Source: a virus (taxonomy: Duplodnaviria > Caudoviricetes). From it: DNA of 30,858 nt. The stretch lies in the IMG/VR virus record IMGVR_UViG_3300037478_000502, positions 1-30,858 of that record; one strand, given 5' to 3'. Under the pieces are notes generated by a model that was not told where the DNA came from, did no database searches, and worked only from the letters and a program-made list of their open reading frames with translations. The translations under genes and the position numbers were made by a program. Shown one piece after another: positions 6,865 through 28,564 of the stretch; the first letter of the stretch is position 1, and every line of letters starts with the position of its first letter.

Positions 6865-7515
6865 TCAGTCTACGTGCCGCCAGCTCCGTCTTTTGACTAC
6901 GGCCGAGATCGCGCCCGTACTAACTCCGTAATCAGTAGCAAGTTGCGTAATCGTGTCGCCTCTATTGCGGCGTGCGCGAATGGAACGCACTTGGTCAGTC
7001 GTCAGCCGGGCGGAGTGGCTGTGCTCGCCGCTGATGCTTCGCGCCTGTTGTTTGGTGGTGGCCCATCGGCAGTTGTCTGGACTATATGGCCCATCGTTGT
7101 CGATTCGGTCAACGGAGAGTCCGCGTTCCGGCCGCCGGCCCATGTCCGCGAGAAATGCCGCAAAACTTTCGCGCCATCGGGTGCATATCGTGATGCCCCG
7201 CCCGCCGTATCGGTGGAAGAACTGGTCATTAGGGTTGAGACATCGCTTCTTGATCGATTTCCACGTTCGATACTCAGTGGTTTCGGAGCCATTCGCGGCA
7301 TGGCCGTGAGTTGTCCGCATAGACGCGCGTTGACGCTGAAGACAGCCGCACGACTGAGTCAGCCCAGCGGTCAGGTTGCTGCCTATGGCGACCACTTCGT
7401 TTCCGCAGTCACAACGGCAAAGCCATTTGGTTTTGGAGAATCTAGTTTGGCCAGCATGGCAGATGACGGTCAGGCGACCGTAGCGATTTCCCGTAATTCT
7501 CAGGGGCGCAGGCAT
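6865..7515 (-). CDS. HNH-family homing endonuclease with C-terminal HTH
   Basis: [51 protein letters not shown] motifs; antisense to the late operon and visibly more AT-rich. Confidence 0.88.
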
Positions 7516-7522
7516 GCCTAAC

Positions 7523-7551
7523 AATATACAGCGACGGGATGTATTAGTCCA
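7523..7551 (-). promoter_or_regulatory. putative sigma70 promoter for a leaderless HNH transcript
   Basis: Minus strand reads TGGACT-17 nt-TATATT-7 nt-ATG(7515); no SD sequence. Confidence 0.5.
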
Positions 7552-7569
7552 CCGTCTGGGCAAGCTCTG

Positions 7570-8019
7570 ATGGCAACCGCTGCGCTGAAAGGATCCGCGA
7601 CAATCACGTACACGCCGCCGGGTGGTGCGCAGGTCGTGCATCAGCTCGCGATCCCGCTGCTACAGATTGAGCCGGCCGACCGCATGGCGCGCTACGATTG
7701 GTGGGCTGAGGACTTCGACAATCGCGAGGTCGTCACGCTTGGGACGGGCGTCTACGAGATCCGGGCGAGCGTGCGGTTCGAGAATCAGCCGGACGAACTC
7801 AAGGCGCTGTTGCGGACGTCGCTCCGAAGTGATGTCACGCTGTTCTACACGGTCGGCTCGACAATCTACCCGCTGCGGCTTGTGGCCGTGCTCGGTGCAT
7901 CCGACATGGACGAAACGCCGCTCGTACCCGACCGCGACCGCTACGGGTTCGGCGAGTGGGAATGCCGGCTGCACCTGCGTCGTACTGACGGCTCGACTCT
8001 CGACGCGCTGTTCTCATGA
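7570..8019 (+). CDS. putative distal tail (Dit-like) protein
   Basis: First rightward structural-looking gene after the tape measure; 149 aa; synteny only. Confidence 0.5.
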
Positions 8020-20384: not shown

Positions 20385-20702
20385 ATGGCTACCGTGGAAC
20401 CGTGGTATGTCGATAACGACAACCTGATTCAGCACTCGCCGACGGACCGCGATGGTAATCCGGTTATTGGCGCGACACTCGCGGTGACTATGTACTTTCT
20501 CGATGGTACGGAAGTCGCCGGCCCGTCGTGGCCACTTGATATGCCGGAGTCGACCGGTGTCTACGAGGTGATCGTCGACAAGGACGAACTGACCGACATC
20601 GCCATTGGTGACCGGTTGTCGGGTAGGATTGTGATTGCAGATGGAGCCGGCGGAGACGGGGGGCGACTGATATCCTACAGGGTTATGGAGTACCCAGCAT
20701 GA
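20385..20702 (+). CDS. small Ig-like/BppU-like structural protein
   Basis: AGGAG RBS; D.DGNPVIGAT..V...DGTEV...WP.......GVY motif. Confidence 0.5.
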   Translation: MATVEPWYVDNDNLIQHSPTDRDGNPVIGATLAVTMYFLDGTEVAGPSWPLDMPESTGVYEVIVDKDELTDIAIGDRLSGRIVIADGAGGDGGRLISYRVMEYPA

Positions 20703-22477
20703 AACGCGCACTGATGGTCGCCGCGACACTTCTCGCGGCTGGTGGCGGGGTAGACGCGCAGTCGAATCGCGAGCAATTCATCTATTGGTGGGATTGGCAG
20801 GACGGCACCTTCTGGAGCCGCACCGAGCGTTGGGTCCCGCCAGTGGGCAACCCGGAGGCCGTTCGGTGTGTGTTGCAGAATCGTCAGACCGGGCTGACGT
20901 GGGATGGCATCGCGTACCTTACGGGGTCGGCGCCGCCGCCGGCTCGCGTGGATACTGTTACCGTCATCGTGACGGACACCATCGTCGTGCGCGATACAGT
21001 GTACCTGCCCGCTGACACAATCGCGGAGCCGATCCCGACGGACACCGTCTCGCTACCGCCCGACACGACGATAGTCGGCCGGCTGGCCGCAAGATGGGAG
21101 CCGCATACGTGGGGTGCCGACGTGATCGTACAGCTCGCGGACTCGGCCGCTGGTGTCGATGTGACATTCTCCCCGTCCGGCGGCTTCATGGGTCCGCCGA
21201 CAGCGCCTGTCACGGGCGAGTGGACGCGCCAGACGAGCGCCACGGGCCAGGTCGGCGTGGGCTGGCGGTCGTACTCGGTCACGGACACGATGACGATCCG
21301 GAGCGGCCGGGACACGCTGCGTATCGGCGTGCCGGTCGATACGACGACACTGCCGGTGCCGATTCCGCCGGTCACGGTACCGCCCGTGCTACCTCCGACC
21401 GGTGGGGCCAGCATCACGCCGCTGGATCTGCTGATCCCGCTGGGTCCGCTGGCCCCGGCCGGTACGGTCAGTGACGCTCAGGTGCAGCGGCTCGATGCGC
21501 GATTCGATCAGCACGAGCCGGGCGTCTGGCAGTACTACGCCGATCGTGAGACCGACATCAACATCGTCATCGTCTCGCACCATTACGGCGCGCTGCGCGG
21601 CCGGCTGCAATGGTCGATCCGGAACGGTGAGGCGATCGGACCGCAGGCGACGGAGGCGTCCAGTGCGTACGCACGGGGTCGGCGGATCGTGCGCGCGTTC
21701 CTCGCCCGCTACAGCAAGCCTAACAAGTTCTACATACCGGCCTATTGGAACACGGGACTGCTGGATGTCGAAGCGCTGTACGTGCTCGAAGGTGATCCCG
21801 ATGCGCTGACGCACATCTGGGTGACGGGCATGGCATCCACGTACGACCCGAACGGGTATTACAAGGGAACCAACTCGAACACCGAGCTCCGGCCGGGCAT
21901 CGTCGGGCTGCAGGCATACAGCTTCCTCCACCGTAACGGCGTGCCGTTCCAGCGCAGTTCCGCGAACAGCAGCATCGGATTCGATTCGTCTCCGGGCTCG
22001 TGGCTCGAGGCCGGCCGACGGCAGATCGGCTGGTTCGACGCATGGTGCACGACCGGTGTCTGTCTGTCGCCGGGACATGGCGGTGATGAGGTCTACTTCT
22101 ACAACGCGTGGCTGGCCACCGAGCTGCTGAACTGGTGGGCGTTCGTCGAGGGCACGCAACGGCCGCAGGCGTACGAGTTGGCGGTCCGGCTGATGGACCA
22201 TCTGGTCGACGAGTGGCAGCGTCGCGGCGGTTCGTTGCCCTACCAGTCGACGGGTTACGCGACGGGCGGCAACACCGACCTGGCGGCGTTCCACGTATGG
22301 CCGGCACTCGTGCTCTGGCAGGAGACGGGCGACGCGAAGTACTACGACTTCGCGATGGCGCACCTCGCGGCCGCGAACACGGCGAACTCCGTCTATCTAG
22401 TGAAGCAGTTCAACCAGATCACATCGACGCTCGCGCAAGGGGCGGAAGCACTGCTTCAGGGGGTGGCATGGCGCTGA
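20699..22477 (+). CDS. secreted protein: signal peptide, D-T-rich and Pro-rich linkers, aromatic-rich helical C-domain (possible alpha/alpha toroid)
   Basis: MKRALMVAATLLAAGGGVDA-Q signal peptide; LWQETGDAKYYDFA is typical of (alpha/alpha)6 barrel repeats. Confidence 0.6.
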   Translation: MKRALMVAATLLAAGGGVDAQSNREQFIYWWDWQDGTFWSRTERWVPPVGNPEAVRCVLQNRQTGLTWDGIAYLTGSAPPPARVDTVTVIVTDTIVVRDTVYLPADTIAEPIPTDTVSLPPDTTIVGRLAARWEPHTWGADVIVQLADSAAGVDVTFSPSGGFMGPPTAPVTGEWTRQTSATGQVGVGWRSYSVTDTMTIRSGRDTLRIGVPVDTTTLPVPIPPVTVPPVLPPTGGASITPLDLLIPLGPLAPAGTVSDAQVQRLDARFDQHEPGVWQYYADRETDINIVIVSHHYGALRGRLQWSIRNGEAIGPQATEASSAYARGRRIVRAFLARYSKPNKFYIPAYWNTGLLDVEALYVLEGDPDALTHIWVTGMASTYDPNGYYKGTNSNTELRPGIVGLQAYSFLHRNGVPFQRSSANSSIGFDSSPGSWLEAGRRQIGWFDAWCTTGVCLSPGHGGDEVYFYNAWLATELLNWWAFVEGTQRPQAYELAVRLMDHLVDEWQRRGGSLPYQSTGYATGGNTDLAAFHVWPALVLWQETGDAKYYDFAMAHLAAANTANSVYLVKQFNQITSTLAQGAEALLQGVAWR

Positions 22478-22555
22478 GCGTGGGGCACCGTGATACTTAC
22501 GTGACCGCGACAACAGCGCGGTGATAGGGACTCTCTACCTTCGGAGGCGGAAGCC

Positions 22556-22852
22556 ATGAGCATGCAGGAACAGCGTGCGGCCGCGCACAAGATGGGGCTC
22601 GACGCGATCTCGTACTGGCGGCTGGCCGATGAGTTTTTCGCGAGCATCGCCGGCATGCGCGAAGCGGCGGGCGAGGGCTCCGTGATGGTCTTCACGCGGG
22701 GCTACGATGCGAAGGAGGGGATCTTCCGGCTCTGGTACGGCCTGCGAACCGCGGCCGGCGAACGGGTGAGCGACGGCAATGGCGGATTCTATGACGACGC
22801 GACGTGGCCGTGCCCGCCGTTCCCGCCGCCGGGTGGCGGTGAGTGCATCTGA
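22556..22852 (+). CDS. small protein with C-terminal D...PCPP...C motif
   Basis: GGAGG RBS; ends FYDDATWPCPPFPPPGGGECI; TGATG-coupled to the downstream membrane gene. Confidence 0.75.
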   Translation: MSMQEQRAAAHKMGLDAISYWRLADEFFASIAGMREAAGEGSVMVFTRGYDAKEGIFRLWYGLRTAAGERVSDGNGGFYDDATWPCPPFPPPGGGECI

Positions 22853-23562
22853 TGGCCGTCCTGCAATGGGCGGTCTACCCGGCGCAACTGCTGCCGCTGG
22901 CGCTGTTCACGTTGCTGGCGATCTACGCGCAGATCCGCAAGCGACCACGGCCCGACGACGACGCATGGCAAATCGCGACCGCGCTGGCGTTCTCATTCGC
23001 AGCCGATGCGATCGCGCGGAAGATGATGGGCATGGGCATCAACAACAACATCGTGATGCACTTCGCCGCGCCTATCCAGTTCGGATTGCTGCTGCATGTA
23101 TTCCGGCCGCGCGATCTTGTGCCAGCGACTCTCGTGATGGTGATCCTGACGCTCGCCGCGGCCTCCGATGGGTTCGTGCGACCGGAACGGTGGATCCAGT
23201 TCACGATGGGTGCGTGGGTCGGATGGGCCGCGTACCGGAGCGTCAGCCCGTACCGCTGGCCGGTGGTGCTGTACTGCGCGGCGGCCGTGCCGTTGGTGGC
23301 ATGGACGAGCCTGCCGCCATCGCTCGACGGTCCGTGGATTATCGCGTTCGGTGCGTATCACGTCGTGCGGCTTGTTGCTCTGCTGTGCGTGGTCGCCGTG
23401 CTGGCGGGCTCGCTGTACCCCCGACGACAGGAGGCGACCGTTGAACATGTGGGACGCGTTGGTCGCCGTCGCGGCCGAGGACCCTCTGCTCACCGCTCTG
23501 TTGGTAGCGCTGGCGGTGAACGCCTACCTGTCCGTGCGGGGCCGGCGGGCTGGCATTACTGA
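22852..23562 (+). CDS. 7-transmembrane membrane protein
   Basis: About seven hydrophobic segments; GINNNIVMHFAAPIQFGLLL motif at TM3; hydrophilic tail overlaps the next gene. Confidence 0.7.
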   Translation: MAVLQWAVYPAQLLPLALFTLLAIYAQIRKRPRPDDDAWQIATALAFSFAADAIARKMMGMGINNNIVMHFAAPIQFGLLLHVFRPRDLVPATLVMVILTLAAASDGFVRPERWIQFTMGAWVGWAAYRSVSPYRWPVVLYCAAAVPLVAWTSLPPSLDGPWIIAFGAYHVVRLVALLCVVAVLAGSLYPRRQEATVEHVGRVGRRRGRGPSAHRSVGSAGGERLPVRAGPAGWHY

Positions 23563-23707
23563 GGCGAAAAAGCACCCGTGCGACGGTCTGCGTGACGAGA
23601 TTCGGACGTTGACCGCGGCCATGTCACTGGCGCACGAAAAGTCGCGCACCGAGACCCGGCATGAGATCGAGCGGGCAGTGGACGAAATTATGCGCGGGGA
23701 CAAGTAA
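23441..23707 (+). CDS. small N-terminal-TM, helical protein (holin-like or unknown)
   Basis: AGGAGG at 23429-23434, then TTG 23441 or ATG 23447; TM LLTALLVALAVNAYL; TAATG overlap with next gene. Confidence 0.6.
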   Translation: MNMWDALVAVAAEDPLLTALLVALAVNAYLSVRGRRAGITEAKKHPCDGLRDEIRTLTAAMSLAHEKSRTETRHEIERAVDEIMRGDK

Positions 23708-24204: not shown

Positions 24205-24492
24205 GTGCCTGACACCGAGGCGTACGAGTTCGGCTTCGCGAAGGAGCCCGTGATCGCGGTCCGGTTGCCGTGGGTGTTCGATCTGCGTTCCGTTGCCGGA
24301 GTCGCGCTACGGCCGCCGAAAGAGTTCAGCTTTCCTTGGCTGGTGGTGAATGCCGACGGAAGCATGCACATGCTGAAGGACCACGTGTTCCGCCGACTGT
24401 ACAAGCCGCTGAACGACGGATCGCGGCGCTATCTCTTGTCGCTGCCGACGGTGGCGGACGAGGCGACGACTCCAACGGGAGACGCGAAATGA
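24205..24492 (+). CDS. hypothetical protein
   Basis: GTG start after GAGG; WLVVNADGSMHMLKDHVFRRLYKP. Confidence 0.55.
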   Translation: MPDTEAYEFGFAKEPVIAVRLPWVFDLRSVAGVALRPPKEFSFPWLVVNADGSMHMLKDHVFRRLYKPLNDGSRRYLLSLPTVADEATTPTGDAK

Positions 24493-24707
24493 CAGCCATC
24501 ATGCTGGCGACACTCGTGCAGGATCTCAGCTCGACGCGCGGGCTGATCCTGCTGATAATCTGGATCCTGCTGATCGGCTGCGTACTCTGGGCCGTGCGGT
24601 GGGCGCTCGGACAGTCCGGGTTGCCGAAGCCGGTGCAGACCGTCGCGCTGGTCGTGGTCGCGCTCGTGATCCTGCTGTACGTGCTGACGCGGTTCGGCAT
24701 CGTATGA
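24489..24707 (+). CDS. 2-TM small membrane protein, holin candidate
   Basis: GGAG RBS and ATGA overlap; two strong TM helices separated by GLPKPVQT. Confidence 0.6.
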   Translation: MTAIMLATLVQDLSSTRGLILLIIWILLIGCVLWAVRWALGQSGLPKPVQTVALVVVALVILLYVLTRFGIV

Positions 24708-25609
24708 AGGTCGCGGTCGCGCTCGGCGGCGGCGGCTGGCGCGCGCCCGTCCACGGCGGCTTCCTCTGGCGGCTCCGTGAGCTTGGCGTCACGGTCACGG
24801 GCATCGACGGCGTATCGGCCGGCGCGCTCGCGACCGCGTACGCTGCGCAGGGCGACTACGACCGCATGCGCGACGTATCCCTGACCGCCATGATCCCCGA
24901 CGGCCACAGGCTGAAGACCGGCCCGGAGCTGATCGAAGAGGCCGGCCGCGTCCGGATCCGTCTGTGGCCGCCGCGGGTCGATGTCACCATCGCGGTCAAC
25001 CGCATCCAGTCCGTCGGGCGAAACGATCGGCTCTGGACGAACTATCTGGAGCGCGACATCGATCCGGCCCGCGTGCAGGTCCCGTGCTGGGTCGGCTGCA
25101 CCGTGTGGTGCGGAACGGACCTGCGCTACCTCAGCATCCCGCACACGGCCGGGCAGTGGGCACGCGCCGTCTGGGGATCGGCAACGATGCCGCTGATCTG
25201 GGAGTCAATCGAGTGGACGGGCATGGCGCCGGACTCTGGCGAGATCGAGACGCTGAAGCTCGTCGACGGCGGTCTCATGTCCGTGATCCCGCTCGATGAC
25301 GCGATGTTCCACATCCTGCACGGTCATGCACCGACGCCGGATGTCGTCGTTGCGCTCGGCACGACGCCCGGCAATCCGTTCCTCGAAGAGCCGTCCGGGC
25401 TCGTGCACGGCGCGCTCCGGACGCTCGGGACGATGACCGCGCAGACGACGCGAGACGATGTCGCGCCGAAGAGCTGGTGGCCGCCGGATCAGGCGTACGA
25501 GGTGCGCTACATCGAGCCGGACCTCGGCGGTACGCTCGACGCGACGCCGGAACTGCAGCTCGCGCGCTGGAATCAGGGCGTGGCGATCGCGGATGGGCTA
25601 TTCGGATGA
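24704..25609 (+). CDS. patatin-like phospholipase
   Basis: ALGGGGWR oxyanion loop, GVSAG nucleophile motif, SA.MP and LVDGG catalytic Asp motif. Confidence 0.9.
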   Translation: MKVAVALGGGGWRAPVHGGFLWRLRELGVTVTGIDGVSAGALATAYAAQGDYDRMRDVSLTAMIPDGHRLKTGPELIEEAGRVRIRLWPPRVDVTIAVNRIQSVGRNDRLWTNYLERDIDPARVQVPCWVGCTVWCGTDLRYLSIPHTAGQWARAVWGSATMPLIWESIEWTGMAPDSGEIETLKLVDGGLMSVIPLDDAMFHILHGHAPTPDVVVALGTTPGNPFLEEPSGLVHGALRTLGTMTAQTTRDDVAPKSWWPPDQAYEVRYIEPDLGGTLDATPELQLARWNQGVAIADGLFG

Positions 25610-26127
25610 TCTACCCGCGCGACGACTGGAATGCGGCCTACGGGCTGGGCAACCGGATGCGTTCGTTGGACCCGCTAGACCTGATCGTCATCCACCACGC
25701 GGCCAGCCCGAACGTCGAGTGTGGCGTCGGCCGGCAGCATGAGCGGAACGTCGTCCGTGCAATCGAGCGGCACCATGTCCAGAAGAACGGGTGGGCCGGC
25801 ATCGGCTACAGCTTCCTCGTGTTCCAGTCTGGGAACGCCTACGAAGGCCGCGGCTGGCAACGGGTCGGCGCGCATACCCGCGGGCGCAACTCGACCGCGT
25901 ACGGCATCTGCATCGTGATCGACGGTACCACGGTCGCGCCAACGGAAGCGGCCTTGGAAGCCTGCCGCGAGATCATCGAGGAAGGCGTCCGACTGGGCCA
26001 CGTCAACGCGGACTACGCGATCGGCTGGCACGCGCTCTACGGTCAGACTGCATGTCCGGGCGTCCGCGTTGTGCAACGGCTCGCGGATCTCGGGCCACTC
26101 GTGACGGACATGCCCCCGGCAGCCTGA
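25606..26127 (+). CDS. endolysin, N-acetylmuramoyl-L-alanine amidase (Amidase_2/PGRP-like)
   Basis: IVIHHAA, GWAGIGYSFLV, YEGRGW.RVGAH..G.N, H.....TACPG zinc-ligand motifs. Confidence 0.93.
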   Translation: MIYPRDDWNAAYGLGNRMRSLDPLDLIVIHHAASPNVECGVGRQHERNVVRAIERHHVQKNGWAGIGYSFLVFQSGNAYEGRGWQRVGAHTRGRNSTAYGICIVIDGTTVAPTEAALEACREIIEEGVRLGHVNADYAIGWHALYGQTACPGVRVVQRLADLGPLVTDMPPAA

Positions 26128-27954: not shown

Positions 27955-28173
27955 ATGGAACCCGCCCGACTCGGCTCTCCGCCGCCAGCACTCGAGCGCG
28001 ACCACGCCCGCGACCGCAAGATGGCGGAGCTGCGGGCGGAAGGTCGGTCGCTCGCGGAGATCGGCCGTCTGTTCGGCGTGTCACGCGAGCGTGTCCGCCA
28101 GCTCCTCCGTCGCTACGACGGGGAGCGAGCGGGGGTCACCAGATCGCGATCAGGTAGAAGCGCCAGCCGGTGA
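27955..28173 (+). CDS. small HTH protein (sigma70 region 4-like)
   Basis: EGRSLAEIGRLFGVSRERVRQL. Confidence 0.8.
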   Translation: MEPARLGSPPPALERDHARDRKMAELRAEGRSLAEIGRLFGVSRERVRQLLRRYDGERAGVTRSRSGRSASR

Positions 28174-28564
28174 ACCCGTTGACGATCCGGAGACCTGGCG
28201 TCGGTGAGCCGATCCCTGTGATGCCGCAAAACGGGCTGCCGGAGGATGTCGGCGTATACGCTATCGCGAGCCACGTCTGCCCGATCTCGCTCATGTAGCA
28301 CGCGATCGCCGGCAGCTTCCCGTTCGCGATTGACGCGGTCGGGAGTGTCAGCGTGAACGAGCCGGAGGCGTCCAATACGCCGGTCGCATCGATCCGGTTG
28401 AGCGCGCCGGCGGGTCCCGTTGGGCCGGGCGGACCGATCGGCCCCGGCGGTCCGATCTCCCCGCGCGGACCCTGCTGACCCTCCGGCCCCTCCGGCCCCA
28501 TCGGAACTTCCTGACACCCGAGCACCAACGCTGCGAGTGCCATCGCCATCATGCTGCGTCGCAT
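28136..28564 (-). CDS. collagen-like lipoprotein
   Basis: GGAGG RBS; lipobox LVLG-C; about ten G-X-Y triplets; small beta C-domain with two Cys. Confidence 0.8.
   Translation of the reverse strand: MRRSMMAMALAALVLGCQEVPMGPEGPEGQQGPRGEIGPPGPIGPPGPTGPAGALNRIDATGVLDASGSFTLTLPTASIANGKLPAIACYMSEIGQTWLAIAYTPTSSGSPFCGITGIGSPTPGLRIVNGFTGWRFYLIAIW

Follow-up and report, generated by a model that had tools for sequence, protein, structure and literature searches.

The window, that is, the entire analyzed stretch of 30,858 nucleotides (IMG/VR record IMGVR_UViG_3300037478_000502; Caudoviricetes), represents the late region of a tailed phage, in which genes for capsid, neck, tail tube, and tape measure are followed by long tail-like genes and then by lysis genes. 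A preliminary description had pointed out a 98-aa soluble protein coupled by TGATG to a protein with approximately seven transmembrane helices, preceded by its own ribosome binding site (RBS) and a gap of approximately 78 bp. This arrangement was borne out by the open reading frames, a GGAGG sequence located 8 nt upstream of the gene 1 ATG, and a seven-helix AlphaFold model of the gene 2 product (7TM in the following). A third gene starts within gene 2 (Table 1).

Table 1. Features of the cassette and the adjacent lysis region in the window.
Feature	Position	Strand	Remarks
Intergenic leader, 78 bp	22478..22555	+	GTGATACTT at 22490-22498; GGAGG RBS at 22543-22547
Gene 1, soluble 98-aa product of alpha/beta type carrying a PCPP..C motif at the C-terminus and lacking a signal peptide	22556..22852	+	Homolog of the first gene in the bacterial cassette
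Gene 2, seven-helix membrane protein, 236 aa	22852..23562	+	Overlap with gene 3, in a different frame, at residues ~197-236
Gene 3, 86 aa, with N-terminal membrane helix, basic patch, HPCDGL, and predicted coiled coil	23447..23707	+	Own GGAGG at 23430-23434 inside gene 2
Two one-helix plus coiled-coil genes, 83 and 82 aa	23707..24203	+	Only weak matches to holins/spanins; also present in L001
Rest of lysis region: two-helix protein (72 aa), patatin-like phospholipase, Amidase_2 endolysin	24489..26127	+	

The sequence GTGATACTT in the leader is common to the window and two further phage loci (L001 and L021), and a second GTGATAG follows it 30 bp further in the window (22490-22527). The element resembles a lambda-type -10 element or an operator; since a sigma-70 consensus scan of the leader gave no site, a promoter at this position is regarded as a candidate only. 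All three genes are under purifying selection. Relative to L001, a phage with 93-96% identity, dN/dS was 0.12 for gene 1, 0.24 for the core of gene 2, and 0.14-0.15 for gene 3. The GC3 values of gene 1 (0.87) and the gene 2 core (0.82) resemble those of the remaining window genes.

Downstream of the cassette, the two one-helix genes gave only weak matches, to the Rz-like phrog_739 (E 0.023) and to the putative holin NF046041 (E 0.0037, far under the cut-off). The patatin-like phospholipase gene (24704-25609) is coupled between the two-helix gene and the endolysin gene and is absent from that place in L001; its product is a possible lysis accessory. Upstream of the leader lies a 592-aa gene (20699-22477) with a signal-like N-terminus and no family match, whose middle is swapped in L001, L007, and L021 while its end (..W-R-stop) is kept. 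It is a candidate for a secreted or tail-associated hypervariable protein. Two genes on the opposite strand code for a collagen-repeat lipoprotein (28136-28564), with a different lipoprotein in a similar region of L001, and, behind the tape measure gene, for a protein that by eye is HNH/AP2 homing endonuclease-like (6865-7641).

Products of the three genes

The gene 1 product ends with FYDDATWPCPPFPPPGGGECI and contains no hydrophobic stretch. Common to all 18 phage-type small proteins are two helices and a beta hairpin together with an invariant PCP, and 16 of them show the C-P-P-x-C type spacing. The second Cys, which is near-invariant among the small proteins, is displaced outward in the window copy (CPPFPPPGGGEC) and in P0004. 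A function of the small protein as a secreted signal received no support from the sequences, as a signal-like N-terminus was found in none of the 18 phage-type proteins; the same holds for all 38 small proteins from Gemmatimonadota, and 19 of 39 from Bacteroidota carry one. The predicted model of the gene 1 product is of moderate confidence (pLDDT 72), and a fold search with it returned nothing over Z 3.7 and matched no solved fold. In the bacterial small proteins the conserved core spans the folded body. Neither the gene 1 nor the gene 2 product had a match in Pfam, PHROGs, or NCBIfam.

Relatives of the 7TM were collected with a three-sequence profile from 1.84 billion representatives and formed 69 clusters at 50% identity, two of which were spurious and were dropped, and one of which is a probable chimera; a 7TM joined to DivIC (P0018) was taken as chimeric. 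The 61 aligned relatives gave no consistent family match, and no holin, exclusion, or enzyme family in Pfam, PHROGs, or NCBIfam matched the 7TM, which supports the preliminary description on this point. The ESM Atlas returned only unnamed clusters at 0.89-0.91 and DUF6962 at 0.85. The NNN..H motif noted earlier turned out to be a local variant, seen in the window copy, of the family consensus N-x-W-x-x-Y-x-x-A-P-x-Q-F. The AlphaFold model, based on the 61-sequence alignment, has seven helices within residues 2-186 (mean pLDDT 83). Approximately two K/R residues per loop occur in loops 1, 3, and 5 and in the C-terminus and fewer than one in loops 2, 4, and 6, and the protein is therefore predicted to have an N-out/C-in orientation. 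Conserved polar residues are S48, D52, P74, Q76, E112, Y141, Y169, and R173; the near-invariant ones among them (S48, D52, Q76, E112, Y169, and R173) would lie mostly in the outer half of the protein in a pocket-like arrangement, a placement read from the helix bounds and not from coordinates.

In a VIA-align search with the 7TM model, chains of GPCR fold filled nearly all of the top 45 rows with Z 9-11.9, and the best match (Z 11.9, rmsd 3.7, 180 aligned residues) stayed under the value of approximately 13 that helical bundles can reach through common arrangement alone. Foldseek returned nothing at E<=0.001 (best E 0.14). According to the model the phage 7TM would share with the GPCR/rhodopsin fold the seven helices in a GPCR-like arrangement, the N-out/C-in orientation, and polar residues in the outer half, but it shows only 3-11% identity, has shorter loops, and is found with neither a retinal Lys nor a G protein. 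The likeness may reflect only a common arrangement of helices. A microbial rhodopsin was rejected, as a Lys in helix 7 occurs in 5 of 61 sequences and not in the window copy. CREST hydrolases (AdipoR, ceramidase) have three conserved metal-binding His; this assignment was discarded too, because only one alignment column contains His in more than 40% of the rows and AdipoR2 ranked 50th (Z 8.6).

Gene 3 starts within the 7TM reading frame (an overlap of 116 nt), approximately 40 codons before the 7TM stop, and the final ~40 residues in the 7TM frame are therefore a shadow of gene 3. Since the same out-of-frame tail occurs in 54 of 67 7TM relatives, those without genomic context are presumably phage genes. 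The length of ~40 codons is ordinary for a shadow frame of gene 3. A functional C-terminal tail on the 7TM was rejected on the basis of a dN/dS of 1.26 in the tail versus 0.14 in the frame of gene 3 (four changes only), and the predicted topology lends no support to a frameshift fusion of the 7TM and gene 3. The overlap (23447-23562) contrasts with the other abutting junctions in the window, which are -1 or -4.

The gene 3 product had no match in PHROGs, and its copies are loosely alike (five aligned). Like the bacterial kinase discussed below, it begins with a single membrane helix that is followed by a coiled coil, but it has no catalytic core. An origin as a truncated histidine kinase was rejected for now, as hhalign gave 4.1% and 2.9% in comparisons of five gene 3 sequences, a shallow query, with 21 and 14 kinase N-termini. 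Lysis regions of this type often contain small one-helix coiled-coil genes, and in L004, L018, and L023 such genes also precede the pair. Because of this and of the lack of detectable kinase homology, the slot of gene 3 may be incidental.

Phage loci, bacterial homologs, and ancestry

Eight phage loci representing six lineages were found (window, L001, L004, L007, L018, L021, L023, and L303), with between-lineage identities of 22-42% for the small protein and 24-46% for the 7TM; both partners are equally diverged between phages. In all eight loci the small gene and the 7TM gene are directly followed by a one-helix coiled-coil gene 3, the coupling of the first two genes is intact, and an endolysin gene lies 0.8-2.4 kb downstream of the 7TM. 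The endolysins belong to four families: Amidase_2 (window, L018, L021, and L023), GH108 (L004), M15-type (L001, and L007 by eye from its likeness to L001), and SLT (L303). Near-identical cassettes precede different lysins in the window and L001 as well as in L004 and L018, and L023 has kept the cassette in another gene order, behind a gene that by eye is terminase-like. DNA-pattern scans of IMG/VR yielded true loci in 4 of 19 and then 1 of 1 cases, and new loci in 0 of 2 and then 1 of 4. All five loci found by the 7TM alone had the small gene upstream, and L303, found by the small-gene motif, had the 7TM downstream. The preliminary description had stressed the missing kinase and response regulator, and this held beyond the window: none was present in the window or in ten phage loci, and PF02518 and PF00072 were found in none of five whole phage records (54-88% complete), a set that does not include the records of L018 and L303. 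No match was obtained among 50,697 GenBank phages; pattern scans of GTDB genomes for the phage-type 7TM gave no true match among 49 and 63 matches, respectively, and one of the three matches of a metagenome pattern scan was true and already part of the set. Approximately half of the 49 matches to the pattern N-x-W-x-x-Y-x-x-x-P-x-Q-F-G (L024-L072) were in Planctomycetota and Verrucomicrobiota, and these matches are unrelated to the 7TM and probably represent another protein family.

A bacterial cassette consisting of a small PCPPxC protein, a 7TM, a histidine kinase, and a LuxR-type regulator had been mentioned in the preliminary description, and such a cassette indeed exists, in the order small protein, 7TM, sensor-less histidine kinase, and NarL/LuxR-type regulator. 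When the phylum of a Pedobacter MAG (Bacteroidota) was searched with a small-protein profile built exclusively from phage sequences, 3 of 201 genomes were positive, and in all three matches the small gene is followed by a 7TM gene and then by a kinase or PAS gene. With a bridging profile, 33 of 301 Bacteroidota genomes were positive. When 40 of the 49 matches were extended, an adjacent 7TM was found in 40, a histidine kinase in 35, and a REC-GerE regulator in 26, the latter two counts being based on 63 of 89 proteins that are encoded downstream and are shorter than 700 aa. Among 351 genomes of Gemmatimonadota (the phylum of a Gemmatimonadetes MAG), 49 were positive with the small-protein profile and at least 14 with the phage-only 7TM profile, a count that is a floor, as this search used a stricter filter; 13 of the 14 had an adjacent small gene. 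Extension of 40 of the 62 Gemmatimonadota matches revealed 38 canonical loci, 34 of which contain all four genes in the above order, whereas three have no kinase and one lacks the 7TM as well. The searched genomes are related to each other, so that the counts do not represent independent events. Several 7TM genes precede one kinase in L112, L135, L143, and L290, two small genes precede one kinase in L272, L285, L291, and L299, and L137 has a doubled small domain; the tandem arrangements suggest combinatorial inputs.

Profile comparisons showed both phage genes to be homologous to the first two genes of the bacterial cassette. For the 7TM, phage-only and bacteria-only profiles matched in hhalign with 95.2% (E 2.7e-8, 188 columns), and reversed and column-shuffled controls gave 0.04-0.1%. 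An earlier comparison with only three bacterial sequences had given 0.5% and became positive with 43, and a match of 99.4% was discarded because two sequences were common to both alignments. The corresponding match of the small protein (95.7%, E 8.7e-9) covers mostly the motif and one strand, and since block-shuffled controls still scored 92-96%, it rests on a short segment. The locus is a conserved, as yet unnamed three-gene phage cassette derived from an uncharacterized bacterial signaling input module. A literature search, with subscription papers mostly outside its scope, returned no description of the bacterial cassette, nor of any 7TM receptor that a phage encodes next to its lysis genes.

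The relationship of the 7TMs was analyzed in a FastTree phylogeny of 122 sequences (186 columns, midpoint root) that included every second context-less relative and omitted three fragments or chimeras. Seven phage and 32 context-less 7TMs formed one clade (support 0.85), apart from nearly all kinase-linked 7TMs, which had median scores against the phage profile of 9.8 bits (37 from Gemmatimonadota) and 3.8 bits (43 from Bacteroidota). The sister group of the phage-type clade consists of three copies from one genome of the phylum Gemmatimonadota, G640 (joint support 1.0). Each of them is located behind a PCPP small gene and has no adjacent kinase (L263:535-3517, minus strand; L262:9064-10335, plus strand). 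Two tandem copies are 375-aa fusions with an AraC-like HTH (weak HTH_18 matches, E 2e-4 and 5e-3) and are candidate one-component receptors; the third carries a Cys-rich extension (CxxC..C). As the phage 7TMs form their own clade and the sister copies are without kinase, the phage cassette is an old rewired module and not a fresh capture. The proposal that the phage had captured only the signal and sensor half of the system is also at odds with gene 3, which fills the slot of the kinase in 8/8 loci. The G640 pairs without kinase, two of them HTH-fused, further indicate that the small protein and the 7TM form a portable input unit with exchangeable outputs.

The hosts of the phages are likely, though weakly shown, to be Gemmatimonadota. 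Pointing in this direction are the G640 sister copies and one full-length match with 45% identity (L306) of the window lipoprotein domain among 201 genomes; the same domain gave weak partial matches in 201 Bacteroidota genomes. The window capsid protein matched one of 351 Gemmatimonadota genomes at 26% identity.

Possible function of the phage cassette

The preferred reading, to which a probability of roughly 0.4 is assigned, is that of a phage-adapted receptor module that lost kinase and regulator and feeds lysis control through gene 3. Because most of the bacterial kinases possess a single helix and lack an outer sensor, the input in bacteria is likely provided by the 7TM together with the small protein. 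A phage branch without kinase and regulator would have arisen from this module. The 7TM would be a sensor with a periplasm-facing polar pocket, and the PCPP..C protein its dedicated partner, acting as ligand or modulator. In bacteria the 7TM would act on the single helix of the sensor-less kinase. The corresponding target in the phage would be the one helix of gene 3, whose coiled-coil product would pass the signal to the neighboring lysis proteins, so that a sensed cue could advance or delay lysis. An argument against this reading is that it offers no explanation for how the gene 1 product, which has no signal peptide, would reach an outward-facing pocket; the same applies to 38/38 Gemmatimonadota copies. 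The lysis module is, moreover, a frequent site of phage cargo genes. A far-reaching version, in which a family of Gemmatimonadota phages possesses its own GPCR-shaped receptor and dedicated protein ligand, rewired from a host kinase to a holin-like protein for receptor-gated lysis timing and possibly private phage-to-phage signaling, appears rather doubtful; if true, the phage form would also offer a minimal handle on the uncharacterized bacterial cassette.

The phage pair might instead interfere with the host circuit by activating, jamming, or titrating the host cassette, with gene 3 being either a decoy of the kinase or a normal lysis gene. The likely host phylum does have the full cassette (49/351 genomes; kinase and regulator in 34/38 canonical loci) and the phage copies come without these two genes. 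However, none of the kinase-linked 7TMs in the tree (37 from Gemmatimonadota and 43 from Bacteroidota) falls within the phage 7TM clade, a distance that weakens the earlier idea of jamming or eavesdropping on a canonical host circuit; the cassette is present in only about one in seven genomes, the host was inferred from a single lipoprotein match of 45% identity in 201 genomes, and the fixed place beside the lysins is not accounted for. Host interference is accordingly considered unlikely. Ranked after it, and unlikely as well, is a pair with no role in signaling, either a membrane accessory (superinfection exclusion, envelope remodeling, or lysis helper) or cargo with its own promoter at an insertion-tolerant site. 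The own leader with GTGATACTT conserved in three loci, the neighboring patatin-like phospholipase and several small membrane genes, and the lack of a regulator in the phage records would fit. Such a role does not readily explain why both partners, the C-terminal motif, and the polar pocket residues were retained over six lineages at the same location in 8/8 loci, and the 7TM has no holin, exclusion, or enzyme family match, no CREST His set, and no conserved helix 7 Lys.

Close behind, and likewise unlikely, is signaling between phages. Here the gene 1 product would be made late without a signal peptide, freed at lysis, and oxidized at both Cys residues, and the 7TM of neighboring infected cells or lysogens would detect it, with ligand and receptor diversifying as cognate pairs. 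The strict coupling of the two genes, their equal divergence between phages, the invariant PCP with its near-invariant second Cys, and the signal-like N-termini of 19/39 Bacteroidota small proteins, which point outside the cytoplasm, are in line with this scenario. A folded 10-kDa protein would nevertheless need to cross the outer membrane, a signal-like stretch is present in 0/38 Gemmatimonadota and 0/18 phage-type copies, the cassette includes no processing protease or exporter, and the conserved core of the bacterial proteins extends over the folded body, unlike in a peptide precursor. A neutral hitchhiker or an annotation artefact, finally, is highly improbable and was largely refuted: the loci are few in IMG/VR and absent from the GenBank phages, but the low dN/dS of genes 1 and 2, the 69 clusters of 7TM relatives with only two spurious ones, and the coupling intact in all loci speak against it.

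If the preferred reading of a receptor module feeding lysis control is true, the cassette would connect a signal to lysis in a new way, by means of a seven-helix receptor encoded at a constant place next to the lysis genes; to our knowledge, phages sense outside cues by cytoplasmic receptors or antiholins. The phage clade together with its HTH-fused bacterial sisters also shows the unnamed pair to be a portable input unit, which makes the bacterial cassette testable, as the one-component HTH fusions provide direct ligand reporters.

Comparison with known systems

SaePQRS is an accessory-protein two-component system in which, as in the bacterial cassette, a small and a membrane protein control a kinase without sensor domain; no homology to it was seen, and the phage form has no kinase. 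Parts of quorum-sensing circuits are carried by other phages, among them the agr genes of phiCDHM1, the VqmA receptor of VP882, and the arbitrium pair AimP/AimR. The phage cassette would likewise place part of a signaling circuit, possibly a ligand-receptor gene pair, on a phage, but these systems rely on the Agr kinase or on receptors in the cytoplasm, together with short peptides that are secreted. A peptide quorum-sensing pair of the Agr or arbitrium kind was rejected in view of the lack of signal-like N-termini (0/18) and of an exporter or protease in the cassette. In the text of a 2026 review of phage communication covered by a term search, no passage contained 'transmembrane', 'membrane receptor', 'two-component', or 'holin' (PMC13389391).

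With respect to function, the lysis inhibition of T4 offers an analogy. There the antiholin RI/RIII acts on the holin T, and in the phage cassette, too, the time of lysis would be set at the inner membrane in response to a cue from outside. The T4 system is not known to include a 7TM receptor or a PCPP partner, no sequence link to it was seen, and the effect of the phage cassette on lysis is inferred. The bacterial cassette differs from the phage form by its kinase core, its regulator, and the signal-like N-terminus of some small proteins, and the phage form has its separate 7TM clade and its location in the lysis module; nevertheless, genes 1 and 2 are homologous in both, occur in the same order with the same coupling, and are followed by a third gene that likewise starts with a membrane helix and a coiled coil.
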